Assembly: GCA_963715895.1 (NCBI GenBank)
Contig: OY970284.1
Coordinates: forward strand, 4,899,892-4,963,891
Direction of reading: 5' to 3'
Origin: Thermoanaerobaculia bacterium
GTDB taxonomy: Bacteria > Acidobacteriota > Thermoanaerobaculia > Gp7-AA8
Length of the DNA: 64,000 bases
Under the pieces are notes generated by a model that was given only the letters and a program-made list of their open reading frames with translations, was not told the DNA's origin and made no database searches. Below are positions 14,727 to 51,185 of the stretch, piece after piece. The translations under genes were made by a program, and so were the position numbers. The stretch's first letter is position 1. Each line of letters starts with the position of its first letter.

Positions 14727-14935
14727 GGTCTCCTCCGTTTCGAATGAAAACACGGCCCGTCGCCCTTCCGTTCGCGGCAATTTCCGTGATTTTGGGGGCC
14801 AGATGCCGCAAAATGCTACTTTCTAAAAACAACCGGGTAGGGAAATACCTCTCTGGAGTCTCTCCCATGAAGAGAATCCAAAGTAACCCGGTGTCCCGGG
14901 GGTTCGGGGGGCCGGGGAAAAGGGCGAGTAGAGAG

Positions 14936-25759: not shown

Positions 25760-25913
25760 GGAACCTCCTCATCTGCCAGATGACAGTGGAACTCTCATGA
25801 CATCAGTGAACGAATCTCGGATATAAGTCAGATATAAGAAAGACGCCCGGCCAGGCCTGGTTGTGAACAAACCTTCACAAGTGGCTCCCCCCGGGCGTCT
25901 ACCGAGGCGGCTG

Positions 25914-26687: not shown

Positions 26688-26719
26688 GGGTGTGCCGCGA
26701 CGCACGCCGGAGGTCTGCT

Positions 26720-27046
26720 ATGGACAAATGGAACATTGGTTATGAGGGCGACAACATCCACATCGTCATTCCGCGCCAGCACGCTTCCGATCTTCTCTAT
26801 GCGCTGACGCTCGGCCTTGGAGGCAACACGCTCGCGCCGGTCAAGCCCGGGAACGGAAACGGCGGGAACGGCGGAGGCGCCGCCACGCCCGCCTCCGGCG
26901 CGTCGCCCGCAACCGGCAAGGCCGGCGGCAAAGAGGGGACGAAGGGCGGAAGCAAGAGCGGTGGAAAGAGCGGCGGCAAAGGTGGCGGAAAGACCGGCGC
27001 CAAGACCGCGGCCAAGACCGCCAAGCTACCCGTAGTCAAGAAGTGA
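26720..27046 (+). CDS. small protein with ~40-aa folded N-terminus and Gly/Lys/Ser-rich disordered C-terminal tail
   Basis: MDKWNIGYEGDNIHIVIPRQHASDLLYALTLGLGGNT followed by GNGNGGNGGGAATPASG...GGKSGGKGGGKTGAKTAAKTAK. It sits between the GT-like gene and the 695-aa gene with short gaps. Confidence 0.45.
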   Translation: MDKWNIGYEGDNIHIVIPRQHASDLLYALTLGLGGNTLAPVKPGNGNGGNGGGAATPASGASPATGKAGGKEGTKGGSKSGGKSGGKGGGKTGAKTAAKTAKLPVVKK

Positions 27047-27055
27047 TCTCTGCCG

Positions 27056-29143: not shown

Positions 29144-29292
29144 CAAGATGGTCAGTCTCCTCAAGAAGTACACGAATCCAGATCGTCTCGCAGGCCAGAT
29201 GCATCTGCTGCGCGTCAGCAGCGAGCTCGACGCATTGCCGCGCCAAGAACGCGCTGTGTGCATCGACGACGGCAATGTCCAAAGACCGGAGA

Positions 29293-32810: not shown

Positions 32811-32907
32811 CGCACCCCTCGCTGCTGAAGCGGCGTGTCTGACTATGATACTTGAAATAATTCCGGCGCGCTTTCTTACACACACGGCAGGGCTGGGGAT
32901 GAAGAGG

Positions 32908-34281: not shown

Positions 34282-34293
34282 GGTACTGTCCTT

Positions 34294-36024: not shown

Positions 36025-36181
36025 GGGATTTCCCTACCCGGCGTAGCGCTGCGGCATCCGCACCATCGCCGCCAGCTCACCCATGCACCCGCAGCCCGGT
36101 CGCCTCTCGTCAAACTTCGCGGAACCGAGTCTCAAAGTCCCCGATGTGGGCGCGGCTATTTAGCGCCGCGCCCACATTTTC

Positions 36182-37660: not shown

Positions 37661-37670
37661 GGTCTGCTCC

Positions 37671-38033
37671 TTACAGCGGGCTGAATTCCCATGTCGGCTC
37701 ATTGAGCGTATCGGGATCGAGGTCCACCACATGATGCGAGGGGTCGATCGCCGTCTCAAACGTCACCGTCGTATCGAGCGTTGTGGCACTACTCGCTGTC
37801 GCCGCGATTGCGATTTGATAGTGCTGATTCCCAGCGGCGTCGAAATCGAATGACACTCCGTGCTCGAGGTCGTCCGAGGTCCACGTCTCTCTGAGAGTGA
37901 CAGGAGCATCCGGATCGGTGACGTCCTGGTAGAAGAAGAGCTTCCCGGCATAACCGGTAACGTTGTCTCCAGGTGTCGTCGTAAAACTGACCTTGTTGGG
38001 TGCCGGAACAGTGTAGCGGCCAATAGCGGGCAT
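37671..38033 (-). CDS. hypothetical small protein (120 aa), co-oriented 10 nt upstream of the secreted protein gene
   Basis: A GGAGG RBS precedes the ATG. The protein is acidic and Thr-rich with no known motif. Confidence 0.45.
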   Translation of the reverse strand: MPAIGRYTVPAPNKVSFTTTPGDNVTGYAGKLFFYQDVTDPDAPVTLRETWTSDDLEHGVSFDFDAAGNQHYQIAIAATASSATTLDTTVTFETAIDPSHHVVDLDPDTLNEPTWEFSPL

Positions 38034-38227
38034 AGTTAAACCTCCTGCCCTCTAGAGACGGCCAAGCCATGAAGTTTCCGGCCCGAGTGGTTGAAAGAAC
38101 CGTTCGCCCTCGGCTACAACGGTAAGCAGCGAATCAGGGCAGCATGTCGTCGGACACACGCCAGCCTTCCGGCGCTTGCAACTGTTCCCGACTTGTACTT
38201 GTCAGATCCGCACCGGCGGTGTCGTGT

Positions 38228-38944
38228 TCAATCCAGAAACTGATGCCGTTTCAACCCCTCATACAGCGACGTATCGGGATACGAAGCATCCTTATCCCTC
38301 CCCTCCCTCCTCCACCGTTCGTTCCACAGATGAACGCCGAGGGAATCGGGAGGGAGTGGGGGGCGGCGGGGGGAGATGATCGTTAACCAGTCCGCCTCGC
38401 CGATGGGGCAGAAGATCCGGGAGGGGCGGACGTAGCGCTCCCGGGCGAAGCGGCGCACGGTTTCGGCGACGAGACGTGGGCCGACTTCGCCCCATTTCAG
38501 GGCCGACGGGTCCTTGGAGGCACACACATCCCACGCGTACTGCATCGCCTCACACCCGCGCGGCGCTTTGATCGCGCCGGCGCAGATGACGTCCACTCCA
38601 TGCTTCCCCGGCTCGCTGGCGAAGACGTAGGGATCGTCGGTGGTGAACGGCTGGAGGCAGACCTGGTCGGTGTCGACCCACCAGCCGCCGCGGTCGAGGA
38701 GGAGTTTGTAGCGGAAGAAGTTCGAGAAGCCGGAGTAGGAGTTGTGGTCGCGGTAGACGAAGATCGATGAGCTCGGAAGGATCTCGTTTCCGTCGCGGAC
38801 GATGGTGCCCTCGGGGATCCGGGCCACATCGCCGTAGACGTAGAGATGAAACTCGTGGCCGTGGTGGAGAAACGACTGGATGGTCAGCCGTTCCATTGAT
38901 GATAGAGACGGTCCGATCCAGAGGCTCTGGATCACATCGGCCAC
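38228..38944 (-). CDS. glycosyltransferase with DXD sugar-binding region (Gly_transf_sug / GT32-like)
   Basis: MADVIQSLWIGPSLSSMERLTIQSFLHHGHEFHLYVY and the DxD motif WWVDTD. Confidence 0.65.
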   Translation of the reverse strand: MADVIQSLWIGPSLSSMERLTIQSFLHHGHEFHLYVYGDVARIPEGTIVRDGNEILPSSSIFVYRDHNSYSGFSNFFRYKLLLDRGGWWVDTDQVCLQPFTTDDPYVFASEPGKHGVDVICAGAIKAPRGCEAMQYAWDVCASKDPSALKWGEVGPRLVAETVRRFARERYVRPSRIFCPIGEADWLTIISPRRPPLPPDSLGVHLWNERWRREGRDKDASYPDTSLYEGLKRHQFLD

Positions 38945-40077
38945 TGCAGCATTTCCTCCCAGCGCCCCATTACTTCGTCCACGCTGAACCGCTGCACAAC
39001 CTCGGGGGCACGCGCGCCGAGGCGCGAGCGCTCCGCTTCATCGCGCATCAGGCCGCCGAGCGCGCGGGCCATCGCGCCGACTTCGTCCTTCGGCACCAGC
39101 ACACCGTCGACGCCGTGGCGGACAATCATCCGGACGCCGGGAGAGCAGTCGAAGGCGATGACCGGAAGACCGGAGGCCATCGCTTCGCAGAGAGCGTTCG
39201 GAAATCCCTCCCGGCGCGATGGCTGCACGTAGAGATCGGCGCGCGCCAGCACATCGTCGTTGTCCGAGGTGAAACCGCCCAGAGTGATGCGGTCAGCGAC
39301 CCCGAGCTTCGCGATGTAGGCCTCGAGTTTCTCGCGATCGCTGCCACGGCCCCATATCTCCAGTCTCCATTGTGGATGTTCGGCGGCGATCCGCGCGAAT
39401 GACTTGATCAGCAGGTCGTAGCCCTTCTCCCACGACAACCGGCCGAGCGATGCCAGCACGCGCGTGCCGTTGCGGTCGTCCCGACGTGGCACGTCGCGCG
39501 GGAAGACAGCATTCGGAATCCATGCGCCGCGCCGAACCCCTTGCCGGACGTAGTAGGCGAGGTCGCCCGCGGTCAGCGCGACCACCGCCGTCGCCAGCCG
39601 ATAGGCCTCGGTGCGCAGTTTCTCGTTCGCGTAGGGCCTGGCGATGCCGCGCTCGGAGACGAACACGCGGACGCCGAGCCCGCGCGTGGCGGCGATGGTG
39701 CGGATGTTCGTCGAGTTGATCATCGAGATGATGGCCTGCGGCCGCGTATCGATGATGGTCTTCCGGAGCGTGGCCAGGAGCGGGTGAAGTGGCCGAAAGT
39801 ACTCGCGCGATTTGGGAGTGAAGATCGCCAGCGCAGCATCGATCTGCCGCATCATTTCCGCCGGCGGCTCGGGCCGCTCCCGGAACGGGACTTCCCAGTT
39901 GAGGTCGTGGTGTACGACCCGCTCATCGAGCACGTAAGCCACCGGTTCTTTCGTCCCCTGGTACATCGTGACGATGGAAGGAGTCCACCCGCGCGCCGCC
40001 CAGTAGTTGGCCATGTTGACCGTGGCGCGCTCGGAGCCTCCTCCGCGAAGCGATGCGATGACGAACGTGATGCGCAT
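38932..40077 (-). CDS. glycosyltransferase family 4
   Basis: The GT4 C-terminal signature EGFPNALCEAMASGLPVIAFD and a Rossmann N-terminus MRITFVIASLRGGGSE. Confidence 0.85.
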   Translation of the reverse strand: MRITFVIASLRGGGSERATVNMANYWAARGWTPSIVTMYQGTKEPVAYVLDERVVHHDLNWEVPFRERPEPPAEMMRQIDAALAIFTPKSREYFRPLHPLLATLRKTIIDTRPQAIISMINSTNIRTIAATRGLGVRVFVSERGIARPYANEKLRTEAYRLATAVVALTAGDLAYYVRQGVRRGAWIPNAVFPRDVPRRDDRNGTRVLASLGRLSWEKGYDLLIKSFARIAAEHPQWRLEIWGRGSDREKLEAYIAKLGVADRITLGGFTSDNDDVLARADLYVQPSRREGFPNALCEAMASGLPVIAFDCSPGVRMIVRHGVDGVLVPKDEVGAMARALGGLMRDEAERSRLGARAPEVVQRFSVDEVMGRWEEMLQWPM

Positions 40078-40080
40078 GGG

Positions 40081-40818
40081 TCAACGCGCCCGATACGCGG
40101 CCACGGAGGATTCGAAGTCGGCGGGCGGCGGCATCGACACCAGCGGCACGTGCGTGGCGTCACCGCGGCCGTGGGCGACGAGGAGCGGCGCGCGCGACCG
40201 GAGGATCGCCGGCGTGGTGTAGCGGACGATGAAGCCGGTACGCGGCGCGGAGGAATGGTTCGCGTTCGAGCCATGGACGATGTCGACGTGATGCAACGAC
40301 ATCTCGCCGGGGCGAAGCACGACGTCGACGGCATCGTCGTCGTCGACCTCCGCGGCGATCTCCTGGCCGTGGCTGAGTAAATTTAGAGGCTCTGCTGTGA
40401 CGGCGTGCGCCAGCTTCACTTTGTGCGATCCCGGAACCACGCGCATGCAACCGCTGGCGACCGTGCTGGGGGTGAGCGCGATCCAGGCCGAGAGCGCGGG
40501 AGCGTCGCCGAGAAAGTCTGCGTAATGGCCATCCTGATGCCAGGCCACGAACGACTCATCATGCGGAGGCTTCGAGAGCATCAGCGAGCCCCAGGCCAGA
40601 ACATCGTCGCCCAGGATCTCCCGTACGGTGTCGACGATCACGTGGTGCGTGGCGATCTCCCTGGCCCATTGGAAGAAGAGATGGAGCTGGTCGAGACGCC
40701 GGTCGCTCCCGCACTCGATCATCGTGCGGCTGATGTCGGCTCCGTAACGTTCCACCTCCGCGTCCGTCAAGACGCGCAGAGGAAAGAGGATGCCGTCGCG
40801 CGCGAATTTCTCTTTCAC
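40081..40818 (-). CDS. phytanoyl-CoA dioxygenase (PhyH) family Fe(II)/2OG oxygenase
   Basis: WHQDGHY (HxD) and a distal His in SLHHVDIVHGS. Confidence 0.7.
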   Translation of the reverse strand: MKEKFARDGILFPLRVLTDAEVERYGADISRTMIECGSDRRLDQLHLFFQWAREIATHHVIVDTVREILGDDVLAWGSLMLSKPPHDESFVAWHQDGHYADFLGDAPALSAWIALTPSTVASGCMRVVPGSHKVKLAHAVTAEPLNLLSHGQEIAAEVDDDDAVDVVLRPGEMSLHHVDIVHGSNANHSSAPRTGFIVRYTTPAILRSRAPLLVAHGRGDATHVPLVSMPPPADFESSVAAYRAR

Positions 40819-42065
40819 GGCTGGAACACCTTCTCGAACGCCCGCACGATGTCGTCCATGTCTTCGACGGTGTTGGGCGAGTTGATGCAGGTGAACCAGA
40901 TCAGCTCGCGGTTGAGTGCCTCCGAGCGCGGCAACGTGCCGGCTCCGTAACGAACGTCCGGACGAAGGGCGAAGGGATGGCCGGCCGTTCCGTAGGCGAT
41001 GCGGCGCGCAAAAAGCGGATGCTCGTGCAGCAGCCTCTCGTACCCGCCGACCGCGGGAACACCTTCACGCTGCAACCGCGCCACCACCTCGTCACGCGGC
41101 GGCATCCCGTCGCGACGTACATAGCGGAAGGTCGTGGCGTACGGCGCCTCCTCGACATGCGGATCGATTCGCTGCGGGACGAGGAACAGAAATCCGCGGA
41201 GACCATCGACGAGACGCGACTGGTTGGCGCGCCGGGCGCGGTTCCGTTCGTCGAGCTGTTCCATCTGCGCCACGGCTACCGCGGCCTGCAACTCCGTCAG
41301 ACGGAGGTTGAAGCCGATCACGTTCACCAACTCGGCGTCGCTCCAGTCGACACCGGCCAACCCTTCACCGTGATTGCGGATGAGGCGCAGCTTCAAGGCG
41401 ATGCGCGGATCGTTGGTGACGACGACCCCTCCTTCGCCACAGGTGACGGTCTTGGTCTCCGTCAGCGAGAAGATGCTGGCGTCTCCGAACGCGCCAACCT
41501 CGCGGCCGCGGTACCGCGCCCCGGGAGCCTGCGCACAATCTTCGATGACGCGCAATCCGCGGCGGTGGGCCATCTCCGTCAGAGCATCGACGTCGGCACA
41601 GTTTCCGCCGAGGTGAACGGCAGCGATGGCGCGGGTCCGTTCCGTGATCCTCAACTCGGCGTCGGCGACGTCGATACAGAGCGTTTCGGGATCGACCTCG
41701 ACGAAGACCGGCACGGCGTCGAACGCCAGGATGGCCGTGGCGGTGGCGTGGAACGACATGCAGGGAACGAGCACCTCGTCGCCCGGCTCGAGGTCGATCG
41801 CGCCGAATGCGGCCACCAGTCCCGACGTCGCCGAGTTGACGGCGACGCCGAACGTCGCGCCGCAGCGTTCGGCGAACATCGCTTCGAGCCGGCGCACCAT
41901 CGGCCCGCCGAGAAAGCGCAGCTCGGACGGCGCGAGTTGCAGCGCCGCGGCCGACGACAACGTGCCCGCTTCACGGATGTCGGCGCCGCCTGCGCCGGCG
42001 CGGAAGCCCGACCAGCATCCGCTCCGGAGCACCTCCAGCAGCAGCTCCTCCTCGCGGCCGGCCAT
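40815..42065 (-). CDS. DegT/DnrJ/EryC1/StrS family PLP-dependent sugar aminotransferase
   Basis: VNSATSGL, DEVLVPCMSFHATA, FSLTETKTVTCGEGGVVVTND (PLP Lys). The start is at the internal Met (MAGREEELLL); the listed 553-aa ORF has a non-coding-looking 137-aa Arg/Gly-rich extension. Confidence 0.8.
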   Translation of the reverse strand: MAGREEELLLEVLRSGCWSGFRAGAGGADIREAGTLSSAAALQLAPSELRFLGGPMVRRLEAMFAERCGATFGVAVNSATSGLVAAFGAIDLEPGDEVLVPCMSFHATATAILAFDAVPVFVEVDPETLCIDVADAELRITERTRAIAAVHLGGNCADVDALTEMAHRRGLRVIEDCAQAPGARYRGREVGAFGDASIFSLTETKTVTCGEGGVVVTNDPRIALKLRLIRNHGEGLAGVDWSDAELVNVIGFNLRLTELQAAVAVAQMEQLDERNRARRANQSRLVDGLRGFLFLVPQRIDPHVEEAPYATTFRYVRRDGMPPRDEVVARLQREGVPAVGGYERLLHEHPLFARRIAYGTAGHPFALRPDVRYGAGTLPRSEALNRELIWFTCINSPNTVEDMDDIVRAFEKVFQP

Positions 42066-42127
42066 CTGGCAGGGGGGAGCAAACGGGCGCGTGCGCACCG
42101 GCGTGTGCCGTTCGGGCAGTGTTGCCG

Positions 42128-42904
42128 TCACGCGCTGGCCTCCCGTTGCAGCAGACAATCGTCCGCCAGGACGGAGATCGGCGTGAGATCGACGCTGCAG
42201 TGAAACGGCTCGCGCAGCGGAAGGATCTGGCGGTTCGAGACCGCGTTGTAGTTCAGGTAGAAGATGCGGCGCGGCCACGGCGAGATGTTCGCCGCCGATC
42301 CGTGGACCGAAAGCGCGTCGAAGAAGACCACCGTTCCCGGCGGTCCCATCACCGGCTCGATCCCCTCCTCGGCCGCCAGCGTGGCGATGATGCCGTCGTC
42401 GATGTCCATGGCGTCCGGATTGTGGAAGTGGCCGCGTTTGTGGGAGCCGGGAATGATGAGCAGCGGTCCGTTGCACGGATTGACATCATCGAGATAAATC
42501 CCGACCACTACCGTCTGCGGCCGCGACATCCCGTCCTGCCGGTGCCACTGGTTGAAGTCCTGATGCCACGCCCATCCGGTTCCGTGGAAGCTCGACTTGG
42601 CGTTGAGCCGCGATTGGTAAACATGCACGCGGTCGCGGACGATCTGCTCGCTCGGCGTGACCAGGCGGGGATGGCGTGACAGCCGCCGGATGACGTCGTT
42701 GTGAAAATGAGCGCCGAACACCATCCGCACGGCGCGTGTCTCGTTCTCTTCGCGTACTACGTCCGGACCCTCGCGGCCGAGGAGGTCCGGCATCGCCCCC
42801 TCGATCACATCGAGCTCGGGCGGCGCCAGAAGACCGCGAAAAACGAGAAAGCCCTGATCGTCATATTGCGCGATCTGCTCTTCGGTCAATCGCATGATCG
42901 TCAT
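42128..42904 (-). CDS. phytanoyl-CoA dioxygenase (PhyH) family oxygenase, second copy
   Basis: WHQDFNQW, LIIPGSHKRGHF, SVHGSAAN. Confidence 0.7.
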   Translation of the reverse strand: MTIMRLTEEQIAQYDDQGFLVFRGLLAPPELDVIEGAMPDLLGREGPDVVREENETRAVRMVFGAHFHNDVIRRLSRHPRLVTPSEQIVRDRVHVYQSRLNAKSSFHGTGWAWHQDFNQWHRQDGMSRPQTVVVGIYLDDVNPCNGPLLIIPGSHKRGHFHNPDAMDIDDGIIATLAAEEGIEPVMGPPGTVVFFDALSVHGSAANISPWPRRIFYLNYNAVSNRQILPLREPFHCSVDLTPISVLADDCLLQREASA

Positions 42905-42907
42905 TCC

Positions 42908-43867
42908 TCAATCGTGAAGAACAGGCCGCAACGGAAGGAACTCGCCGAGCCAGCCGACGACCGGGCTGTCGCGTTGGAGCGGCGGCCGGACGGAGCGAAG
43001 AAACCCGGGGACGTTGAAGTAGCGATTGTAATGGACATGCACGAGCTCCTCGAGCTGCGCGCCGCGCAACGGCTGCGGAAGCAGCGGGCGTCCGATGAGC
43101 GGATAGTTGTAGCGGCCGTCGAGGATCTCCACCCGCTCCCAGACGCGCGCCAGCACGACCGCGAGCGAGAGTTGATCGAGATAGTGCCGATCGCCGCCCA
43201 GCGGAAGATGACCCGATTCAATCAGCCGGAGAAAGTCGCGCTTCCACTGCGCGAACAGACCCGCCGTACGCCGTGCCACCACAAGCCCTGAGTTGAAATA
43301 CGCACGGACCCGCTTGCGATCGCCGACCGTCTCCACCCACGGCCGGTTCGTCACGCCGCACAACTCGTACATCCGTTCCCAGTAAGGGTCGATCGGATCG
43401 CCCGGGCCCGCGGAGGCCACGCGGCGGTGGCGCGTCTTCCAGTGCTCGTGATCGGGATCGTCGAGTGGCTCCTTGCCGTGGCGCCAGTAGTCGACCGGCC
43501 GCGCCGCGGCGTCGATCCCCTCGGCGAGCGCAAACGCGGACGGTTCCGAAGTGAGAATCGTGTCGCTATCGAGAAAGGCCACGAACTCGGTCGTGGCCAT
43601 TTCCTCTCCCCTAGCCGAAGCGAAGACCTTGTTGCCGATCGCATAATCGGCCAGATCGACATTGAGCCGCTCGGTGACATGGGTCGCGCCGAGGGACTCC
43701 AGGCCGCGCAGCGTCTCGTCGCTCACCTCCGTGCCGAGGCGCGGCTGGAAGGTCAGGATCGGTGACTCCGCAAAGCGGCCGCCGTAGCGGCGGATCGAAC
43801 GGCAGAGAAGGAGCGTCTTCTCCTCCAGCTCTCCGCGCTCGACGCAGGCGATGAAAGTGATCGTCAC
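42908..43867 (-). CDS. nucleotide-diphospho-sugar transferase-like protein (GT-A fold, DxD FLDSDT)
   Basis: A GTG start is preceded by GGAGAGAAGAGG. VTITFIACVERGELEEKTLLLCRSI and FVAFLDSDTIL. The N-terminal 180 aa of the listed 500-aa ORF look like out-of-frame read-through. Confidence 0.5.
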   Translation of the reverse strand: MTITFIACVERGELEEKTLLLCRSIRRYGGRFAESPILTFQPRLGTEVSDETLRGLESLGATHVTERLNVDLADYAIGNKVFASARGEEMATTEFVAFLDSDTILTSEPSAFALAEGIDAAARPVDYWRHGKEPLDDPDHEHWKTRHRRVASAGPGDPIDPYWERMYELCGVTNRPWVETVGDRKRVRAYFNSGLVVARRTAGLFAQWKRDFLRLIESGHLPLGGDRHYLDQLSLAVVLARVWERVEILDGRYNYPLIGRPLLPQPLRGAQLEELVHVHYNRYFNVPGFLRSVRPPLQRDSPVVGWLGEFLPLRPVLHD

Positions 43868-43869
43868 GT

Positions 43870-44631
43870 TCAGCCTCTTCTCTCCGCGCCGGCGAGACTC
43901 ATCACATAGTCGGAAAGGAGCCACGACACCGGCACCATGGCGCGCGGCATCTGCTGCAAGCCTGTGCCCGGCGTGAGATTGACGCACTCCACGCCGCGTC
44001 TCCGGGCCTGCTCGCAGAACCGCCCCCATCCTTTCGCAACTTTTCGGAAGTGTCCCAGCGACGAGGCAAAGCCGCTGGTGTGCGTCCCGGCGCCGTTGGC
44101 GTGGCGGCCATCGCCTGCGACCATGTCCAGTCCGATGAAGGCCAGCCGTTTGAAACCGCGCCGCGGAATCCGTTTGCCGCGCTCCGCCGCGATGCGCTCG
44201 CGCTCTTCGCGCGCGACGGGATCGTCGGGCCACGGATTGGCCAGCCAGTTGCCGACGATCATGGCGCTGCTGCCGCCTTTGTAACCGGCGTCGTGATCGT
44301 CGCTCCATCCGCGCACGCCATCGAGCTCGTCGAGCTCGCGGACATAGGTCTCCGCGGTCATGTCCGAGGCATCCGCCGAGGTGATGCGCCACGACGACGT
44401 CTCCGCCCACACGCGCGGCAACGCCGGCACGCTGCGGGCCAGGCCGAGTTTGAGATCCATCGCCGCCATGCAGGTGAAACGGACTTCATGACGAAGCACG
44501 CCCGCCGCCGTCGCTCCGCCATTGATCGAGACCACTTCACCCGCACGCTGGACGTCGGCCCACGCGGCCGAGGAGAAGAGGTCGAGCGAAGGCCCGGCGC
44601 AGACGACCACGGCGACGCTCTCGTCAATCAT
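43870..44631 (-). CDS. DUF115 (Maf / MptE-like) protein
   Basis: MIDESVAVVVCAGPSLD contains the hallmark VVxCAGPSL. A GGGAGAGG RBS lies upstream, and the ATG overlaps the preceding stop (TAATG). Confidence 0.65.
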   Translation of the reverse strand: MIDESVAVVVCAGPSLDLFSSAAWADVQRAGEVVSINGGATAAGVLRHEVRFTCMAAMDLKLGLARSVPALPRVWAETSSWRITSADASDMTAETYVRELDELDGVRGWSDDHDAGYKGGSSAMIVGNWLANPWPDDPVAREERERIAAERGKRIPRRGFKRLAFIGLDMVAGDGRHANGAGTHTSGFASSLGHFRKVAKGWGRFCEQARRRGVECVNLTPGTGLQQMPRAMVPVSWLLSDYVMSLAGAERRG

Positions 44632-45413
44632 TACGCTGCCTCTCCCCGCGCGTCTTGCGGCAGGACGAAGATCTTCTCGCGCGCCTCGGCGATGAAATTG
44701 ACGTGCAGCCGCGGAAGCGGCGTCGGCGATCGCTGCGTCACGCCGTGGATGGAGTCGGGCGAATGGATGAAGAAGACAAGCCGGTTTGCGGCATAGCCGA
44801 TCCGCTTGACCGTCTCGACGCGGCGTAGGTCGACGGATCGATCGCCGTTGTAGCGACGCTGCCCGGGCCGGAAGCGATAGAGCTCCAGGTCGCCGCCATC
44901 GGCTTGATCGTCGGGCGGACGCATGTAGAGCATCCCCGCGTACAACGCCACCTCGCGGTCGACATGACACGGCGCCGAGCTGGAGCGGCGGCGCACCGGA
45001 GACGTCCAGGTAATCTGGCAATCCATGGCGAAATCGGCCATCGGCTCGGCGTAACGAACATTCGTCGCCGCATCGTCGAGCCGCTTGCCGATGCCCGATT
45101 CGAGCGCGGGATGCAACGAGCGGATGGCGTCGCCGAAAACCGCCGTAACCTCGCGAAAGAACTCGTTCGAGGTGTGGTGCGCCGACAGCTCCCGCCATAC
45201 GTTCGCGTAGCCCGTACTGCGGATCAGATCCTGCCCCGGAATGCGGTAGTTGCAGTTGTTCTGGATGGCCCCGTTTCCGATGAACGACTGCTCCTCCGGA
45301 AACGACGCAACCAGCGCGCGGTACAACTCCGGCTCGAGCGCGTCATCGATCACGACGTGCGGAAACGGCTCGCTGACGACGGATGCGGCCGTGGCTTTGT
45401 GCAGGATCGACTT
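44631..45413 (-). CDS. hypothetical protein (260 aa)
   Basis: MKSILHKATAASVVSEPFPHVVIDDALEPELYRALVASFP.... The start overlaps the upstream LLM gene stop. No confident family assignment. Confidence 0.5.
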   Translation of the reverse strand, partial: KSILHKATAASVVSEPFPHVVIDDALEPELYRALVASFPEEQSFIGNGAIQNNCNYRIPGQDLIRSTGYANVWRELSAHHTSNEFFREVTAVFGDAIRSLHPALESGIGKRLDDAATNVRYAEPMADFAMDCQITWTSPVRRRSSSAPCHVDREVALYAGMLYMRPPDDQADGGDLELYRFRPGQRRYNGDRSVDLRRVETVKRIGYAANRLVFFIHSPDSIHGVTQRSPTPLPRLHVNFIAEAREKIFVLPQDARGEAA

Positions 45414-46498
45414 CATAGTGCTGCTGCGACCGTCCTCGGCTGCCGGATCAGCGGCAACACTTCCTCTCCGAAAAACTCCATCGACTCCAGTTTCGGCCAG
45501 CCGGCAAGGATGAACTGCGTCACGCCGGCGTCGACGAACTCCTCCACTCCTTCGGCGATCTCGCGCGGCGATCCGACGATGGCAATGCACGGAGCGCCGT
45601 GCGTGCGGACTGCTCCCGTCCACAGCCACGGCGTGAGCCACTCCGACTCCCCCGCCCGCGCGTACGTCGTCCGGACGTTGACCGAGTCGCTCTTGCGCAT
45701 GAACTCGCGCTCCTTGGCCCCGTCGTCGAAGCCATCGCGCGTCTGCGATACCAGCGCGTACGCCTGCTCCAGCGCCGCGCCGCGCGTGGCACCGCCGATG
45801 ATCGAGCAGCGCACGCCCAGCTCCTTGCCGGCGGCGAGCACGTCCGCTCCCCGCGCGCGCATCGTCTCCGGCGTGTCGGGAATCTGCATCCAGATCGTCC
45901 CCTGACTGATGGCCAGATCGTGCGCCTGCTGCGAATTGCCGGCGATGAAGAGCTCCGGGAAGGTCCGGTCGGGGGCGGTGAACGGCGTGTTGATCTTTCC
46001 CCCTTCGACCTTGTAGTACTTCCCCTCGAAGTTCACCGGCCCTTCGCGGCGCCACAGCGCCCGGCAGACCGCCAGGAACTCCTCGGTGCGCGCATAGCGC
46101 TCGTCGTGCGGCAGCCAGTCGCCGTAGTAGTGCTGCTCTTCCGGCGTGTCTCCGGCGATCACGTTGATGGAGAAGCGGCCGTCGATGATCGTGGAGAGGG
46201 TGTTGAGCTGCTGCACGAACGACGTCGGACAGATCAACCCCGAACGATAGGCGACGATGAACTTGATCGTCTCGGTCTGCAGACCGATGGCCGCGGCGAG
46301 GAACATCGGATCGGGTTTCGACCATCCGAAGTCGGTCAGCAGCGAGTCGATCCCCAGCTCCTCGGCACGCTTGCAGAAGCGAATGCGCTGCCCGAGGTCC
46401 GGCAACCCGGTCTCGCCGAGGCTTGCCTGATGTCCGCGCGAGGCGCCGTGGCGCTCGCCTCCCTGAGTCAGCCGCCAGTGGAACTTCAGCTCATTCAT
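45413..46498 (-). CDS. LLM-class (luciferase-like) flavin-dependent oxidoreductase
   Basis: TIM-barrel LLM pattern (FGWSKPDPMFLAAAIGLQTETIKF, VIAGDTPEEQ, GNSQQAHDLA). Confidence 0.7.
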   Translation of the reverse strand: MNELKFHWRLTQGGERHGASRGHQASLGETGLPDLGQRIRFCKRAEELGIDSLLTDFGWSKPDPMFLAAAIGLQTETIKFIVAYRSGLICPTSFVQQLNTLSTIIDGRFSINVIAGDTPEEQHYYGDWLPHDERYARTEEFLAVCRALWRREGPVNFEGKYYKVEGGKINTPFTAPDRTFPELFIAGNSQQAHDLAISQGTIWMQIPDTPETMRARGADVLAAGKELGVRCSIIGGATRGAALEQAYALVSQTRDGFDDGAKEREFMRKSDSVNVRTTYARAGESEWLTPWLWTGAVRTHGAPCIAIVGSPREIAEGVEEFVDAGVTQFILAGWPKLESMEFFGEEVLPLIRQPRTVAAAL

Positions 46499-47580
46499 GA
46501 TGCCGCCACCTCCACTCGCCTCGCTTCCGCCTCTTCGCGCGCGCGCACCGCCGGCAGAACCAGCCGGCGGAAGCGCTCCATCTCTTCCAGATCGGGCCAG
46601 CCCATGAAGAGGAACTGCGTCACACCCGCGTCGCGATAGGTGAAGAGCGCTTCCGTCACTTCATCAGCCGAGCCGACGATGGCCACCGAAGGCGCTCCCA
46701 TGTACGGCACCGCGCCGGTCCAGAGATACGGCGCCGGCCAGTCGTCCGCGTTTGCCAGCTTGTACGTCGAGGTGAAGGCCACCGAATCCGACTTGCGTGC
46801 AAACTCCTCATGCGTCCGCCGCGGAGCGCCGTCGAAGCGCGCCAGGAGGCGCTCCGTCGCCTCGATTGCCTCTTCATGCGTCTCGCGTACGAGAAGCGAA
46901 ACAAGGATGCCCACCTCGATCCCGCCATCGAGGAGCGGCTTGACGCGGTCGCGCATTGCCTCCGCCGGCTGGGGGAGGCGCCACATGCAGTCCGCGTGTT
47001 TCGCCGCCAGCCTCTCGCCGGGAGCGGAGTTGCCGCCGAGGAAAATCTCCGGAGAGGTCCTGTCGGGAGCAACGAATGGCGTGCTCAACTTCCCCTTCTC
47101 CACCGTGTAGTACTTGCCGGCGAAGTTTACTTCGCCCGAGCCTTTCCAGAAGGCGTTGCAGACGGTCAGGAACTCGTCGGTCCGCTCATACCGCTCGTCA
47201 TGCGCGAGAAAATCGCCGTAGTACTTCTGCTCCTCGGGCGTATGTCCGGCGACGACGTTCAGACAGATGCGGCCGCCGGTGACCGCGGCCACGCTGTTGA
47301 CCTGCTGCGCGAAGAGCGTCGGCGAACAGACGCCGGAACGAACGGCCACCATGAACTTGATGCGGGTGGTCAGCATGCCCAGGGCAGCGGCGAGAACGAT
47401 CGGATCGGCGCGATGAAAACCGAACGCCGTCAGCAGCGACTCCATCCCGCACTCCTCGGCCTGCCTGCAGAAACGGACGTGAGCATCGAGGTTCGGGATT
47501 CCTGAAACCGCCCCGCGCGCCTTGGCTCCTTTCAGCTCCTCGCCGGCCGACGACATGCTCCAGTGGAATCGCAGCGCCAT
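46495..47580 (-). CDS. LLM-class flavin-dependent oxidoreductase, tandem paralog
   Basis: Collinear with its neighbour over the whole length. ATGA overlap. Confidence 0.7.
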   Translation of the reverse strand: MALRFHWSMSSAGEELKGAKARGAVSGIPNLDAHVRFCRQAEECGMESLLTAFGFHRADPIVLAAALGMLTTRIKFMVAVRSGVCSPTLFAQQVNSVAAVTGGRICLNVVAGHTPEEQKYYGDFLAHDERYERTDEFLTVCNAFWKGSGEVNFAGKYYTVEKGKLSTPFVAPDRTSPEIFLGGNSAPGERLAAKHADCMWRLPQPAEAMRDRVKPLLDGGIEVGILVSLLVRETHEEAIEATERLLARFDGAPRRTHEEFARKSDSVAFTSTYKLANADDWPAPYLWTGAVPYMGAPSVAIVGSADEVTEALFTYRDAGVTQFLFMGWPDLEEMERFRRLVLPAVRAREEAEARRVEVAAS

Positions 47581-47584
47581 CGCT

Positions 47585-49117
47585 TCAGCCCCTCATCTCA
47601 GCGACGATTCCCATCTCGTCGAAGCGCATGCGCACCAGACTCTGGATACGGCGCGCCACCTCGGCGTAGACGTCGTATCCATGCCCGATCGGGTCGGGGA
47701 TGTCGCCGCCAGGATCGAGACACTGCGCCTTCACCGCAGCCTCCGGGTATTGCTGCACGAGCATCGCCCGCTGCGACTCCGTCATGCAATAGATAACGTC
47801 CGCCGCGACGATCAGCGCCGCCGTCAGCGGCCGCGCTTCATGCCGTGAAGGAACGATCGCCAGATCCCGCAGCGCATCGTGCGACTCGCTGGTCATCGGC
47901 GCGCCGGTGCGCGGCGACAGTCCGCCGCTCTCCGCACGAACGCGTGCAGCCGGCGACATGCCCAGCCGCGTGGCCACCTCGGCGTTGGAGATCGCCGCCG
48001 CCATCGGCGAACGGCAGGTGTTGCCACTGCAGACGAAGAGGATCAGCCGCTCCCGCACCGTCACCAGCGTCGCACCGCGGAGGCGGTCGCCTGTCACGAA
48101 CGCCCAGGCGTCTTCGATCCGGTGATGGAACGGCGAGAGCAGCAGCAGAGCGGAGAGAATCATCCCCGCGGAAACGAGCTGCGATGCCGGCGGAGCCGGA
48201 AAGCCAAACAGTTTCGATAGCACAAAGACCGCGCTGAAGCCGGCCAGGAAGCTGGCGCCGCAGAAGAGCGGCACGCAGAACGTGTTCTCCCGTCCGTCGA
48301 GATAGATCAACGTTCCGAAGATGTTGTGGCTGGCGTAGAAGATCCCGATCAAAACGACCGGCACGATCGCCGCCGGGTGCAAGGTCCAGAAGGTGGTGAA
48401 GCCGCGGCGAAGCGCCAGCGAGGTGGGGCTGTTGCCGAACAACGCCATCATCGCCGGAATGGCCGGCAGGAGGATGATCGTGACCAGCACCTCCTGCACG
48501 AAGTACGTTCGCGTGACCTCGGGATCGTGCACTTTGGCCAGCTTGGTCATGCACGGCGTTCGGAGCATGTAGCCCGTCAGGTACACAGCTAGATTCAGCG
48601 CCGCCAGCAACGGGAGCGAGTAGTCATTCGCCGCGGCGAACGAAACGGCCAACGCGGCGAAGCTGATCACCAGCGCCGCCCACGAGAACCAGCGCACGCG
48701 CCGGTTGTACGCCACATCGATGACCGGGGCCATGATCAGCAGGCCGCCGCGCATCATGATCAACGCCAGGACGATCGAGATCCCCTTGAATGTGAATGCC
48801 ACCGTCGTGCTGCCGATGATCAGCGCCAGCCCCAGGCCGGAGAGCGCGATGGCCGGCGTCGTCACCGGCACGGGGATGCCAAGGAACCGGCGGAATCGCG
48901 CGTACTTCCACCACCCGACGAGCGTGATGATCAGAGGGACCATGAAGACCGTGCCGAGGATCGCCGCCGGCAGAATCTCCAGTCCGAGAAGGCCCTTCGG
49001 TACGCCGGGCACCAATCCCGAGGTGACCGCCTTCGACAGCCCGGCGTAGGGTGTGTAAAACACCACCAGCCCCAGCGCAAACGCCCAGACGATCCGTTTC
49101 GGCATGGTCAGCGTCAT
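47585..49117 (-). CDS. fusion of ~10-TM membrane domain with C-terminal low-molecular-weight protein-tyrosine-phosphatase / ArsC-like domain
   Basis: The N-terminal 350 aa are highly hydrophobic. The C-terminus has the CX5R P-loop VCSGNTCRSPMAAA and DPIGHGYD. Confidence 0.7.
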   Translation of the reverse strand: MTLTMPKRIVWAFALGLVVFYTPYAGLSKAVTSGLVPGVPKGLLGLEILPAAILGTVFMVPLIITLVGWWKYARFRRFLGIPVPVTTPAIALSGLGLALIIGSTTVAFTFKGISIVLALIMMRGGLLIMAPVIDVAYNRRVRWFSWAALVISFAALAVSFAAANDYSLPLLAALNLAVYLTGYMLRTPCMTKLAKVHDPEVTRTYFVQEVLVTIILLPAIPAMMALFGNSPTSLALRRGFTTFWTLHPAAIVPVVLIGIFYASHNIFGTLIYLDGRENTFCVPLFCGASFLAGFSAVFVLSKLFGFPAPPASQLVSAGMILSALLLLSPFHHRIEDAWAFVTGDRLRGATLVTVRERLILFVCSGNTCRSPMAAAISNAEVATRLGMSPAARVRAESGGLSPRTGAPMTSESHDALRDLAIVPSRHEARPLTAALIVAADVIYCMTESQRAMLVQQYPEAAVKAQCLDPGGDIPDPIGHGYDVYAEVARRIQSLVRMRFDEMGIVAEMRG

Positions 49118-49126
49118 GTCGGTTCC

Positions 49127-50377
49127 TCACGGCTTGAAAAAGGACGAATCGAACGTCTTGCCCAGAACCGACTTGCCGATCGTGGCAAGCACCTGGTCAT
49201 CGTTGTCGTGACGGACGTACATCGACAGATCGCGCACGATTCGCTCGACGGGACTGGGCCGGTTGAGGGCACGCGCGCCGCAGGCGCGCACAGCGTGGTC
49301 GACGGTCTCCAGCGCCAGATGCTCGACGAGATGCCGTGCCCGGCTCCCCGCTACCTGCGCCTCGGCATACGCGCCGCTCTCCCACAGCGTAGCCACGTGG
49401 CGCAGCCAGAGATGCGCGGTCTCCACCGCCACCGCCATTTTGGCCACGTGATGCTGGACGTACGGATCGTCGGTCTTGTGCTGGCAGCGGATGTAATCGA
49501 TCGCGTAGTCGTAGGCCGCTTCCGCCGCGCCGAGAAACGACGATGCGTAGTGCGGCACGAAGCAGGTCTGCCAACCCTCGCGAAGATACTGGCCCGGCGT
49601 ACCGATGATGTTCTCGTCGGGGATGTGCGTGTTCTCGAACTCGACCACATGGCTGACCGTGGCGCGCATGCCGAGGGGATCCCACCAACGGGGATCGACA
49701 CGAACCGACGGGTCGCGAAGATCGCAAGCCGCGAGCAGCACGGTGTCGGCCGCCGCGCCGGTGGCGTGCCGCGCGCCGCCCGGTCCGGCCGTGCTGACCA
49801 GGAGCAGAGCCCACGTGGCGCCCCCCGCGCTGGTGCAGAACGCTTTCTTGCCGTTGAGCCGGTAGCCGCCGCTCACACGCTCGAGGGTCGTACCGAAGCG
49901 CGACGTGTCGCCGGGGGCGCGCGCTTGCGGCTCGCCGCTCCAGGCCACCCAGGTCTCGCCGCGCTCCACCACGCCGGGGAACCACCGCCGCTTCTGGGCC
50001 TCATCGGCCATGCCGTCGAGCAGCACCAGCGAATTGGCGTGCCCTTCCCAGCAGCGGGCCAGCGAGAGATCGGCGCGGGCGATCTCCTTCGTCATCATCC
50101 AGAGGGTGAAGACGTCGCCGCGGTACGGACCGAGCCCGAGCCCGCCGTAACTCTCAGGAATCGTAGGCGCCGTCAGCGACGCGGCGAAGAGGTCGTCGAA
50201 GTCTTCCTTCGGAAACACGGCCTCGGCGTCGTATTGCGCCGCACGTGCCGCGAACTGCTCGCGCGCCAGCCGCGCCACCTGCTCGACCAGGGCCCGGCCG
50301 CGATCGGAGAGATAGATCCCCGCGATCGGGCGGGGCTCGCTCGCCGTCTGCCGGATCGGTGTCACGTCCGCGGTCAT
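49127..50377 (-). CDS. acyl-CoA dehydrogenase family protein
   Basis: Start at MTADVTPIRQ. The ACAD-like N-terminal helical domain, middle beta-domain and C-terminal helical domain are present (GGYRLNGKKAFCTSA). Confidence 0.6.
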   Translation of the reverse strand: MTADVTPIRQTASEPRPIAGIYLSDRGRALVEQVARLAREQFAARAAQYDAEAVFPKEDFDDLFAASLTAPTIPESYGGLGLGPYRGDVFTLWMMTKEIARADLSLARCWEGHANSLVLLDGMADEAQKRRWFPGVVERGETWVAWSGEPQARAPGDTSRFGTTLERVSGGYRLNGKKAFCTSAGGATWALLLVSTAGPGGARHATGAAADTVLLAACDLRDPSVRVDPRWWDPLGMRATVSHVVEFENTHIPDENIIGTPGQYLREGWQTCFVPHYASSFLGAAEAAYDYAIDYIRCQHKTDDPYVQHHVAKMAVAVETAHLWLRHVATLWESGAYAEAQVAGSRARHLVEHLALETVDHAVRACGARALNRPSPVERIVRDLSMYVRHDNDDQVLATIGKSVLGKTFDSSFFKP

Positions 50378-50757
50378 CGCTTCACCTGATGAAAAAACTC
50401 GCGATCGAAGAAATGCGAGCGCCCGCTGCCGTCGAGGAAGGTGATGAGCTCCACCACCACCAGCACGCCCAGTTTCACATTGGCCTGCAGATCGACCCGC
50501 GCCTCGCCGAGCTCGAAGCGCGCGCTGAACGCCCCAGCCGCCCGCTCCTCGAACGTGAATGCGTAGAGGGATGCCGGAACGCTTCCCCAATCCGCCGGCG
50601 TGCCGGCGTAGCGTCCGTAAGCGCGTACGTCGATCGATCCGCCGTCATTCGCCGTGCAGACGATTCGGGCGATCGATCCCTCGGCGTTGGTATTGCGCCA
50701 GTCGCCAACCAGCACGGCGGGATCGAGTCCTCTCACAGCCGGTGCGGTAACGGTCAT
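50374..50757 (-). CDS. small hypothetical protein (127 aa), possibly lipocalin-like beta-barrel
   Basis: LVGDWRNTNAEGSIARIV...VDLQANVKLGVLVVVELITFLDGSGRSHFFDREFF. Paralogous to the next gene. Confidence 0.5.
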   Translation of the reverse strand: MTVTAPAVRGLDPAVLVGDWRNTNAEGSIARIVCTANDGGSIDVRAYGRYAGTPADWGSVPASLYAFTFEERAAGAFSARFELGEARVDLQANVKLGVLVVVELITFLDGSGRSHFFDREFFHQVKR

Positions 50758-51185
50758 GACCGGTCACCATCGATGGCCCGGTAGAAGAACTCGCGGGTGA
50801 AGCGGTCGGAGATCGGACCGGAATGACGGAAGGTTACGAACGTCGCCACCACCAGAAGGCCGAGGTTCAGATTGGCCTGGACCTCGACGTCCAAATCATC
50901 GAAACGGTAATGCGCGGTGAACGCACCGGCGCGCGTGTCTCCGGTGCCGATGCCGCCGGAGTAGAGCACCTCGGCGCGGACGCGCCCCCACGAAGGAGGC
51001 GATGGCGGAGCGCTGCCGAAGATCGTGACGTAGAGACCATCTCCTTCGGTATCGACGATCAGCGAATCGATCCACTGCTGCTTGTCGTTCGTCTTCTGCC
51101 ACGAGCCGGCAAGCGTCTCGACGACGATTCGAGGCCGTGGCGGTGTCAGATCGGGCCGGGTCCATCGCTCTGTCGATGCCGTCAT
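50754..51185 (-). CDS. small hypothetical protein (~143 aa), paralog of the preceding
   Basis: Start at MTASTERW with a GAGGAGG RBS. LAGSWQKTNDKQQWIDSLIV...VEVQANLNLGLLVVATFVTFRHSGPISDRFTREFF. Confidence 0.5.
   Translation of the reverse strand: MTASTERWTRPDLTPPRPRIVVETLAGSWQKTNDKQQWIDSLIVDTEGDGLYVTIFGSAPPSPPSWGRVRAEVLYSGGIGTGDTRAGAFTAHYRFDDLDVEVQANLNLGLLVVATFVTFRHSGPISDRFTREFFYRAIDGDRS

Follow-up and report, generated by a model that had tools for sequence, protein, structure and literature searches.

In the 64,000-nucleotide stretch of a Thermoanaerobaculia bacterium genome analysed here (the window; contig OY970284.1, positions 4,899,892 to 4,963,891), fourteen minus-strand genes between positions 51185 and 38228, designated g1 to g14 in the order in which they are read, form one operon. 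This operon represents the elaborate form that one lineage has of a module conserved in Acidobacteriota, which consists of a core and a lineage-variable tail, and it lies among genes of the mnxG type. We tentatively favour the interpretation that it builds, decorates and exports a glycosylated, oxygenated compound for use with an MnxG-like multicopper oxidase encoded in the same window.

The extent of the operon was determined in the window (guanine and cytosine (GC) content about 64%) by reading the coding frames through the frame-specific GC content at third codon positions (GC3), which was 0.75–0.95 in an unbroken minus-strand coding run from 51185 down to 38228. Start codons were chosen according to the ribosome-binding site and the overlap with the preceding stop codon. 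The distances between consecutive genes from g1 to g14 were then −4, −4, +9, +4, −4, −4, −1, +2, +3 (or +12), −4, −4, +3 and −13 nucleotides. An independent gene call, made on the identical sequence in another assembly, covers g1 to g12 (the contig of that assembly stops in the next gene) and gave proteins of 143, 127, 416, 510, 361, 361, 261, 253, 319, 255, 438 and 245 amino acids; its sole mismatch with our model is the start of g10, placed 9 nucleotides later (42895). A reading of the DNA made earlier without database searches (the sequence-only reading) had described a 13-kb operon of 15 genes in which nearly all junctions overlap or are shorter than 15 nucleotides. The single, tightly coupled unit and the short junctions (measured: −13 to +12) were borne out, whereas the number of genes is 14 in the gene model, with which the independent call agrees over g1 to g12. 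Promoter-like and terminator-like sites were not more frequent within the operon than in shuffled sequence when the stretch was scanned, and a tRNA scan revealed nothing informative. A divergent intergenic region of 221 nucleotides lies upstream of g1, and g14 is followed by a gap of approximately 195 nucleotides and then by a gene set of lower GC content. All 14 genes are collinear in the closest related locus (L004; 87–97% amino-acid identity) and g1 to g12 are collinear in L007, L009 and L016 (about 50–77% identity), and the operon is therefore far beyond a chance arrangement.

The genes of the operon are as follows (positions in the window):
50754..51185, minus strand: g1, small cytoplasmic protein, predicted calycin-like barrel, paralog A (143 amino acids; ATG start with a GAGGAGG ribosome-binding site)
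50374..50757, minus strand: g2, small predicted calycin-like barrel, paralog B (127 amino acids; AlphaFold2 (AF2) model and Foldseek)
49127..50377, minus strand: g3, flavoenzyme of the acyl-CoA dehydrogenase (ACAD) fold (416 amino acids; four Acyl-CoA_dh Pfam domains)
47585..49117, minus strand: g4, predicted 10-helix permease of the DMT/SLC35 fold with a C-terminal YwlE-type low-molecular-weight (LMW) phosphatase (510 amino acids)
46495..47580, minus strand: g5, luciferase-like monooxygenase (LLM), SsuD/SfnG-like (361 amino acids; Bac_luciferase E 7.6e-46)
45413..46498, minus strand: g6, second LLM (361 amino acids; Bac_luciferase E 7.1e-45)
44631..45416, minus strand: g7, probable prolyl-hydroxylase-like iron/2-oxoglutarate (Fe/2OG) oxygenase (261 amino acids)
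43870..44631, minus strand: g8, remote MptE-like/DUF115 relative (253 amino acids; very narrow family)
42908..43867, minus strand: g9, protein with a DXD motif (FLDSDT), possibly a GT-A glycosyltransferase (319 amino acids)
42128..42904, minus strand: g10, PhyH-family Fe/2OG dioxygenase, ectoine-hydroxylase-like (255–258 amino acids; PhyH E 1.6e-31)
40815..42131, minus strand: g11, pyridoxal phosphate-dependent aminotransferase of the DegT/DnrJ/EryC1 family (438 amino acids; PF01041 E 1.1e-87)
40081..40818, minus strand: g12, second PhyH-family dioxygenase (245 amino acids; PhyH E 7.4e-28)
38932..40077, minus strand: g13, glycosyltransferase family 4 (GT4) enzyme (381 amino acids; Glycos_transf_1 E 7.6e-41)
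38228..38944, minus strand: g14, GT32-like glycosyltransferase with a DXD motif, last gene (222–238 amino acids)

The families that had been named from the sequence (two PhyH proteins, DegT, two LLMs, an ACAD fold, an LMW protein tyrosine phosphatase (LMW-PTP) fusion, two barrels and glycosyltransferases) were confirmed by Pfam and by models. None of the operon proteins reached a specific NCBIfam cut-off, so that there is no orthologue of a characterised enzyme among them. The operon enzymes carry no signal peptides.

The g4 protein provides the operon with a putative transporter. Its AF2 model (11 homologues, predicted local distance difference test (pLDDT) score 78.5) has ten membrane helices, and the Foldseek search of the membrane domain returned human SLC35B1 (9i20_A) as the best match (E 5.9e-6, target-normalised TM-score (TMt) 0.72 over 330 columns). 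Searches with the membrane part gave no EamA/TPT or other Pfam or NCBIfam match and no PDB sequence match, and one homologue bears the Joint Genome Institute label DMT-like permease. The domain contains its own motifs YLDxRENTF and RVRWFSW together with invariant Arg and Lys residues. The LMWPc domain (residues 359–496, E 1.7e-17 in Pfam) superposes on YwlE and other LMW-PTPs with TMt 0.83–0.90 (Foldseek), and YwlE is also its best sequence match. Its P-loop CSGNTCRS (C363-SGNTC-R369-S370) contains T367, which is invariant in 11 homologues, as is D472; D/E475-P476 are conserved, and these are the acidic DP-loop residues. A Thr at position 5 of the P-loop of YwlE, where most tyrosine phosphatases have Ile, confers arginine-phosphatase activity (PMC7772506). 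From its P-loop and fold, the C-terminal domain of g4 is thus predicted to be of the YwlE subtype (arginine-phosphatase-like), and it is predicted to lie on the cytoplasmic side because of the ten helices and the basic N-terminus. The sequence-only reading had recognised the fusion of a transmembrane part with an LMW-PTP and had overlooked that the transmembrane part has the fold of a DMT/SLC35 permease. The fusion, a new domain architecture which joins a DMT permease to a YwlE-type phosphatase, was found in 44 of the 63 loci bearing the membrane domain. An arsenic protein of the Acr3-ArsC type was also considered for g4 and rejected, as there was no Acr3/SBF match and the arsenate-reductase matches were far weaker than that to YwlE. 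Another homologue, P0087, appeared to fuse the permease with an LLM and was dropped as fusion evidence, as its phosphatase region reads out of frame, indicating an assembly error.

The best conserved core gene is g3 (61–96% identity across about 60 loci, compared with 37–90% for g4). The protein scored below every NCBIfam cut-off, the best models being a desulfinase, SfnB and DszC at approximately 100 bits (96 bits against the SfnB cut-off of 431; 74 against 850 for DszC). The catalytic Glu of ACAD enzymes (YEG) corresponds in the alignment to an Asp of g3; this Asp lies in the motif RHDNDD, whose conservation among 31 homologues is 90% or higher. Since Asp replaces the catalytic Glu, g3 is not a canonical dehydrogenase; of the acyl-CoA dehydrogenase announced from the sequence, the fold is retained and the canonical catalytic Glu is not. 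Judging from the alignment, the Asp could still serve as a base, and an oxidase, a dehydrogenase or a monooxygenase would all be possible.

The small proteins g1 and g2, which are 33% identical and almost always found as a pair (13–14 related loci), gave no match in Pfam, even at relaxed thresholds; g1 gave none in NCBIfam and PDB sequence searches, and the profile of the pair yielded only chance-level matches to PDB sequences. The AF2 model of g2 (26 homologues, pLDDT 85.6) is an eight-stranded up-and-down barrel; Foldseek placed streptavidin/avidin first (TM-score 0.57–0.67, E about 1e-3, no sequence similarity), followed by fatty acid-binding proteins and lipocalins. According to the model, both are predicted avidin-like barrels of the calycin fold. 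Neither has a signal peptide. On the 5′ side, the GAGGAGG site of g1 is abutted by a short tandem repeat, GCCATGTTGGA GCCATGTTGGA GCGATGTTGA (51195-51230, minus strand).

In the tail, g5 and g6 clearly belong to the Bac_luciferase superfamily and scored 179 and 162 bits, respectively, with the SsuD model (cut-off 518). Similarly, g10 reached 155 bits with the EctD model (cut-off 336), and PseC was the best specific model for g11 with 196 bits (cut-off 423). The two Fe/2OG oxygenases expected from the sequence are g10 and g12; the count has to be raised by a third, weak one, since g7 matched 2OG-FeII_Oxy_3 with E 4.5e-4 (below the cut-off) and its family profile matched OGFOD1 (4nhx) with E 0.03. 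In a protein of 489 amino acids (P0289), a Fe/2OG oxygenase domain of the g7 type is joined to a DUF115-like domain of the g8 type, which argues that g7 and g8 share a substrate.

Sequence comparisons indicate two clear glycosyltransferases in the operon, and up to two more are possible. The clear ones are g13 and g14, the latter with a weak Gly_transf_sug match (E 1.2e-4, 23.1 bits against a cut-off of 23); homologues of g14 (50–61% identical) adjoin in many loci a gene which we call c16 and which is described below. The g8 family is almost wholly acidobacterial and very small: 83 clusters were obtained from 5.8 billion proteins searched and 30 representatives from 1.84 billion. The g8 protein did not match Pfam PF01973 (DUF115) even up to E 10, one of five family members matched it at E 0.18, and its profile gave only chance-level matches to PDB sequences. 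However, distant representatives reached with the g8 profile contain PF01973 (P0309, E 4.8e-29; P0310, 6e-6; P0313, 2.9e-6). It is the only significant Pfam family in P0310 and P0313, and in P0309, which has an additional Glyco_trans_1_2 domain outside the matched stretch, the profile aligned (E 2.6e-5) with residues 656–711, inside the PF01973 domain at 645–787. The N-terminus of g8 has a glycine-rich CAGPSL motif. The assignment of g8 to DUF115, proposed earlier as DUF115/Maf-like, is thus one of remote, transitive homology and not of a direct Pfam match. For g9, searches of Pfam (also at relaxed thresholds), NCBIfam and PDB with its profile gave no match, and faint GT2 matches appeared in one family member. 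Calling g9 a glycosyltransferase was not adopted: the hhalign probability against families from the same loci was 1% for the GT32-like one and 8% for GT2, the latter with the DXD motifs aligned.

The more than 1300 members of the g4 family belong almost entirely to Acidobacteriota (Thermoanaerobaculia, Blastocatellia/Pyrinomonadaceae, Terriglobia, Vicinamibacterales and Holophagales). Nearly all of the related loci retrieved stem from metagenome-assembled genomes. The open reading frames (ORFs) were clustered for 50 loci anchored on the g4 permease with flanks of up to 10 kb each. Besides g4, the core comprises g3 (37 loci), a fusion with a shikimate dehydrogenase-like (SDH-like) half (23 loci) and the barrel pair (13 loci); the SDH-like gene lies directly 5′ of the core in most related loci. 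Variable genes follow the core: LLM, PhyH, GT4, GT25, GT32-like, GINT1_N, Glyco_trans_1_2, methyltransferase, RidA and sulfotransferase. Glycosyltransferase-type genes were found 3′ of the g3-g4 pair in 23 of the 30 loci with enough flank, in contrast to one of nine loci without g3. The mixture of glycosyltransferases with a tailoring set, as described from the sequence, is real, and by these counts the homologous clusters are not catabolic operons devoid of glycosyltransferases. The g7-g12 block recurs in L004, L007, L009, L016 and L061, partly in L010, and in the metagenome loci L090, L092, L094 and L125. In one related locus (L048), an ATP-binding cassette (ABC) pair of an FtsX permease and an ATPase and a two-component system were also observed 3′ of the g3-g4 pair.

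Outside the Acidobacteriota, permeases 35–37% identical to the membrane domain of g4 occur in sphingomonads. They have no phosphatase domain, overlap a CapA-family gene and form with it and an MmgE/PrpD-family protein a triad on megaplasmids of Novosphingobium and Croceicoccus (L086–L088). The CapA family is metallophosphoesterase-like. The triad adjoins TonB-dependent receptors and, in Croceicoccus, also a tannase/feruloyl esterase.

The operon is not free-standing; the sequence-only reading missed the core and variable tail, the encoded transporter and the mnxG-type surroundings. The latter comprise the following features:
14891..19395, plus strand: unit of an extracytoplasmic function (ECF) sigma factor, a dehydroquinase-like (DHQase-like)/SDH-like fusion (15562-17043), two SCO1/SenC proteins and a cytochrome-c/binding-protein fusion (Pfam, NCBIfam)
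20090..25759, minus strand: MnxG-like giant multicopper oxidase with a signal peptide (1889 amino acids; NF041487 copper_ox_MnxG)
25881..29143, plus strand: GT2 glycosyltransferase (25881-26687), Gly/Lys/Thr-rich repeat protein (26720-27046) and c16 (27056-29143)
51407..53263, plus strand: secreted YVTN-type beta-propeller, divergent from g1 (TIGR02276 repeat, 40 bits, above the cut-off)

In P. putida GB-1, a putative operon comprises mnxG together with genes for a YVTN propeller, two SCO1/SenC proteins, a cytochrome c-domain binding protein and a SurA-domain protein (PMC11409713). Five of these six genes have homologues in the window, arranged in three units (15.5–29.1 kb including neighbours, and 51.4–53.3 kb); the SurA-domain gene was not found among the annotated window genes. 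The oxidase matched NF041487 with 1094 bits in five stretches over its whole length (cut-off 3100) and shows the copper motifs HCHFYPH and HxH. The genes for the SDH-like protein, the two SCO1 proteins and the cytochrome-c/binding-protein fusion (17040-19395) are connected by 4-nucleotide overlaps at 17040-17043, 17588-17591 and 18148-18151. In the SDH-like half, which scored under all AroE cut-offs, the NAD(P) motif and both catalytic residues (Lys and Asp) are preserved. The DHQase_I-like half (15562-16176, plus strand) is at the limit of detection, and some members of the family have Arg in place of its Schiff-base Lys and its catalytic His (YKL/YRL, WHG/WRG), which suggests from the alignment that it may be a pseudo-enzyme or a ligand-binding domain. 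Because the DHQase Lys and His are not conserved and the SDH scores fall below the AroE cut-offs, the fusion is unlikely to be a housekeeping enzyme, and its assignment as AroD-AroE was rejected.

The association with mnxG-type genes was found from both sides. Among 42 long g4-anchored loci, 29 have a gene of the mnxG set or another multicopper oxidase within 10 kb, and phosphatase-less versions of g4 lie directly 3′ of a multicopper oxidase in Terriglobia and in L085. Of the 61 loci that the g4 permease retrieved, 11 have the YVTN propeller, which is also present in 46 of the 80 MnxG-anchored loci. In the reverse test, neighbours within 10 kb of MnxG homologues were counted in 80 metagenome loci: c16 was the commonest (25 loci), followed by g12-like PhyH (17), g14-like glycosyltransferase (12), LLM (11) and the barrel pair (10), then by GT2 (10), GT4 (9), SDH-like (7), g3 (4) and g4 (3). 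Locus L100 carries on a single strand MnxG, propeller, SCO1, SCO1, binding protein, SDH-like, both barrels, g3 and g4, whereas MnxG in L090 is flanked by a g5-g12 block and a g14-c16-GT2 block. This regrouping around the oxidase in varied order in distant lineages is what one would expect from a functional link and not from inherited synteny.

The gene c16 encodes a cytoplasmic protein of 695 amino acids for which Pfam, NCBIfam and PDB searches found no relative (the PDB profile search gave chance-level matches); it is the ancestral convergent neighbour of g14. The small repeat ORF located between GT2 and c16, or right after MnxG, is conserved, with the motif (V/I)x(V/I)xLxxxxAxxLLxALxxALG in its N-terminal part and a repeat tail rich in Gly, Lys, Thr and Pro (GGKSTT, GGKTGNT, GKPK and similar) behind it, and lacks a signal peptide. 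Its neighbours in 19 loci are MnxG, c16 and GT2 (L089, L090, L092, L094, L095, L097, L103, L110, L115, L124, L146 and others contain it), and it could be an accessory subunit of the oxidase or a substrate of modification.

The model that we tentatively prefer combines these elements as follows. The enzymes, probably cytoplasmic since none has a signal peptide and probably for the most part anabolic, would assemble a small aglycone or a short glycoconjugate. This compound would be oxygenated by six oxygenases, the flavin enzymes g3, g5 and g6 and the Fe/2OG enzymes g7, g10 and g12, and decorated with sugars by g13 and g14 and probably by g8 and g9, including an amino sugar made by g11. The final intermediate would be phosphorylated, possibly with an N-linked phosphate, which the phosphatase domain of g4 would strip while the permease domain exports the product. 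Outside, the product would act with the MnxG-like oxidase set in the role of ligand, mediator, substrate or matrix. A receptor for a small ligand may, speculatively, be the cytochrome-c binding protein of this set. A small molecule or short glycoconjugate is favoured over a polysaccharide because the annotated window genes include neither an initiating enzyme acting on polyprenol phosphate nor a polymerase or flippase. Dephosphorylation of the last intermediate at export is suggested by the permease-phosphatase fusion, and cooperation of a permease with a phosphoesterase by the occurrence of this fusion in 44 loci and, independently, by the overlap of permease and CapA genes in sphingomonads. 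The invariant Arg and Lys residues and the SLC35 fold suggest an anionic or phosphorylated cargo.

Several points weigh against this model, the weakest parts of which are the direction of transport, the missing kinase, flavin reductase and NDP-sugar genes, and the acceptor. The link to MnxG is drawn from gene neighbourhood, and the oxidase, at the score given above, is a putative Mn oxidase by analogy. What the product is chemically cannot be deduced, and neither an acceptor nor a sugar donor can be named. No genes for nucleoside diphosphate (NDP)-sugar synthesis, no phosphate-adding kinase and no flavin reductase were seen among the annotated window genes. The position of the sphingomonad homologues beside TonB-dependent receptors and esterases looks like an uptake system; export by g4 is putative. 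According to NCBIfam, g3, g5 and g6 are closer to organosulfur monooxygenases than to any biosynthetic enzyme, and the case for g8 and g9 as glycosyltransferases, made by sequence comparison, is weak.

The kinship of the flavin enzymes leads to an alternative in which the operon serves scavenging or catabolism, g4 importing an organosulfur, organophosphorus or aromatic compound, perhaps one released by the oxidase or by Mn-oxide chemistry, which the phosphatase, the flavin monooxygenases and the Fe/2OG dioxygenases would degrade. SfnG, MsuC and MsuD are the trio of the dimethylsulfone-to-sulfite route, the same family trio as g3, g5 and g6, for which the SfnB/DszC and SsuD/SfnG families are indeed the best matches, and the TonB receptors and the tannase next to the sphingomonad permeases fit import. 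Yet all scores are far under the family cut-offs, an SsuE-type reductase and an ABC importer are absent, and the three to five glycosyltransferases, DegT and the methyl- and sulfotransferases of related loci are anabolic, which makes this reading unlikely in our view. We regard as similarly unlikely that the operon modifies a protein, hydroxylating and glycosylating the repeat protein (26720-27046) or the oxidase in a collagen- or silaffin-like manner. The prolyl-hydroxylase-like g7, joined in P0289 to a g8-type domain whose superfamily includes the Maf protein glycosyltransferases, would suit such a role, as would the repeat protein adjoining MnxG, c16 and GT2, and the GT25 genes of related loci, GT25 being the family of collagen galactosyltransferases. 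However, three flavin monooxygenases, DegT, the PhyH enzymes and the DMT permease would have no obvious role, and the repeat protein lacks a signal peptide and tracks MnxG and c16, not the g1-g4 core.

The nonulosonic-acid or Maf-type lead of the sequence-only reading corresponds to surface-glycan or flagellin-type glycosylation, in which a Maf/DUF115 enzyme would transfer a nonulosonic-acid-like or unusual sugar and the oxygenases would tailor a sugar or lipid-linked intermediate. This lead was not upheld, and we hold such a pathway to be quite improbable. The several glycosyltransferases of the operon would agree with it, as would the kinship of g8 with MptE-like/DUF115 proteins and PseC as the best specific model for g11. 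However, this kinship of g8 is only remote, and PseC scored less than half of its cut-off. The annotated window genes (larger ORFs) include no NeuB/PseI-type synthase, cytidine monophosphate (CMP)-transferase (CMP-sugar synthetase) or flagellin, and no initiating phosphoglycosyl transferase, Wzx/Wzy, polymerase or polysaccharide ABC exporter; within the same scope, the earlier statement that the window lacks NDP-sugar synthesis, Wzx/Wzy and flagellin genes holds. Moreover, the core is general among the roughly 60 related loci, of which only about 6 have the g7-g12 block. A collection of unrelated functions, brought together by transcript and conserved neighbourhood alone and having neither a shared product nor a connection to the oxidase, is very improbable. 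In its favour, the tail varies strongly from lineage to lineage and the neighbourhood evidence is indirect; but six junctions are start-stop overlaps and a seventh is an overlap of 13 nucleotides, the same families regroup around MnxG in varied order and orientation in distant lineages, and the association is seen in both the g4-anchored and the MnxG-anchored loci.

A wider form of the preferred model, in which the module and the mnxG set are the two halves of a previously unrecognised system of Acidobacteria and some other soil bacteria, is conceivable but rather doubtful. One half would be a cytoplasmic pathway of the SDH-like dehydrogenase, the barrel pair, the ACAD-fold flavoenzyme and variable glycosyltransferases and oxygenases, whose glycosylated product leaves through the permease-phosphatase fusion; the other would be the MnxG-type oxidase with its propeller, SCO1 and cytochrome-c binding-protein partners. 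The oxidase would then have the exported compound as its physiological partner, which might be bound by the cytochrome-c binding protein as a ligand, chelate Mn(III), mediate redox reactions or template a mineral. If true, the accessory genes of mnxG operons would for the first time be placed in a functional context; the purpose of bacterial Mn oxidation and the role of these accessory genes are open questions. In a major soil phylum, a conserved and uncharacterised module for biosynthesis and export is consistently linked with homologues of these accessory genes, and the locus offers concrete deletion targets and a predicted secreted glycoside.

The gene g14 is separated from c16 by genes outside the system:
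29144..38246, minus strand: lower-GC island between c16 and g14 (9.1 kb; GC 0.58–0.61)

The island encodes an nSTAND1 nucleoside triphosphatase (NTPase), an alpha/beta-hydrolase-like protein, an S8 protease and two proteins of no assigned family. The genes g14 and c16 adjoin each other convergently in other loci, and the metagenome contigs L089 and L096 (91–94% nucleotide identity) are collinear with the window on both sides and have a different segment of 2.9 kb at the island point. The region 29144-38246 is thus a variable island slot and not a part of the system; its content is probably mobile conflict or defence cargo. Near the right end of the window, a NACHT NTPase of 930 amino acids with an FGE-sulfatase-like domain (60529-63321, minus strand) adjoins a MacB-type ABC pair and a two-component system (55557-60512). 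The ABC pair, at 55.6–58.6 kb, is of a type other than a polysaccharide exporter. The left edge (3-5401) contains a TonB-dependent-receptor-like outer-membrane protein, a LacI regulator and a beta-glucosidase of glycoside hydrolase family 1 (E 1e-164), a unit for the use of beta-glucosides which is probably unrelated.

The superfamilies of all the domains in the operon are known, as is the general type of a sugar-tailoring operon. The combination of a permease-YwlE fusion, an avidin-like pair with an Asp-type ACAD, a pseudo-DHQase/SDH and the embedding in an mnxG set was not found described. Literature searches on the sphingomonad CapA-permease-PrpD triad, on 5Z8T/5GJ7 and on this gene combination in Acidobacteria found nothing, and a search on MnxG in Acidobacteria found surveys only. 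Three families defined here (the barrel pair, g9 and c16) have no Pfam or PDB coverage, and for two further ones, g8 and the Gly/Lys repeat protein, recognised relatives are remote or absent.

A comparison with known systems places the locus apart from Wzx/Wzy- or ABC-dependent polysaccharide loci, none of whose hallmark genes is among the annotated window genes. The Maf/DUF115 proteins (PF01973) are reached by the profile of g8, which shares with them the glycine-rich motif CAGPSL; unlike them, g8 has no direct Pfam match, no nonulosonic-acid pathway or flagellin was found nearby, and its family is confined to about 80 clusters. Systems of the SfnB/DszC/MsuC and SsuD/SfnG type resemble the operon in having one ACAD-fold enzyme and two LLMs, and it is their enzymes that g3, g5 and g6 match best in NCBIfam and PDB, but the scores are 20–35% of the cut-offs, no reductase was found and the context is one of glycosyltransferases. 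The best PDB match of g3, 5z8t, has an HNP-type motif at the position where g3 has its conserved Asp. The SDH-like fusion has the two-domain order of Arabidopsis DHQ-SDH (2gpt), its SDH catalytic Lys and Asp and its NAD(P) motif, and differs from it in the barely detectable DHQase half with Lys and His alternating with Arg and in SDH scores under the AroE cut-offs.

In g4, the ten-helix fold is that of the SLC35/DMT proteins such as human SLC35B1, although the domain has no EamA/TPT or PDB sequence match and has motifs of its own. Its C-terminal domain agrees best with YwlE in both structure and sequence, including the CX5R(S) P-loop with Thr at position 5; in contrast to YwlE, it is joined to a 10-helix permease, and its substrate may be a small molecule. 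The mnxG operon of P. putida GB-1 differs from the window in that no SurA-domain gene was found in the latter, its oxidase scores at a third of the cut-off and the set is divided into three units, and none of the families of g1 to g14 is represented among the six Pseudomonas genes (PMC11409713). Nevertheless, homologues of five of the six genes are present in the window and related loci, and those in L100 are arranged in the Pseudomonas order.

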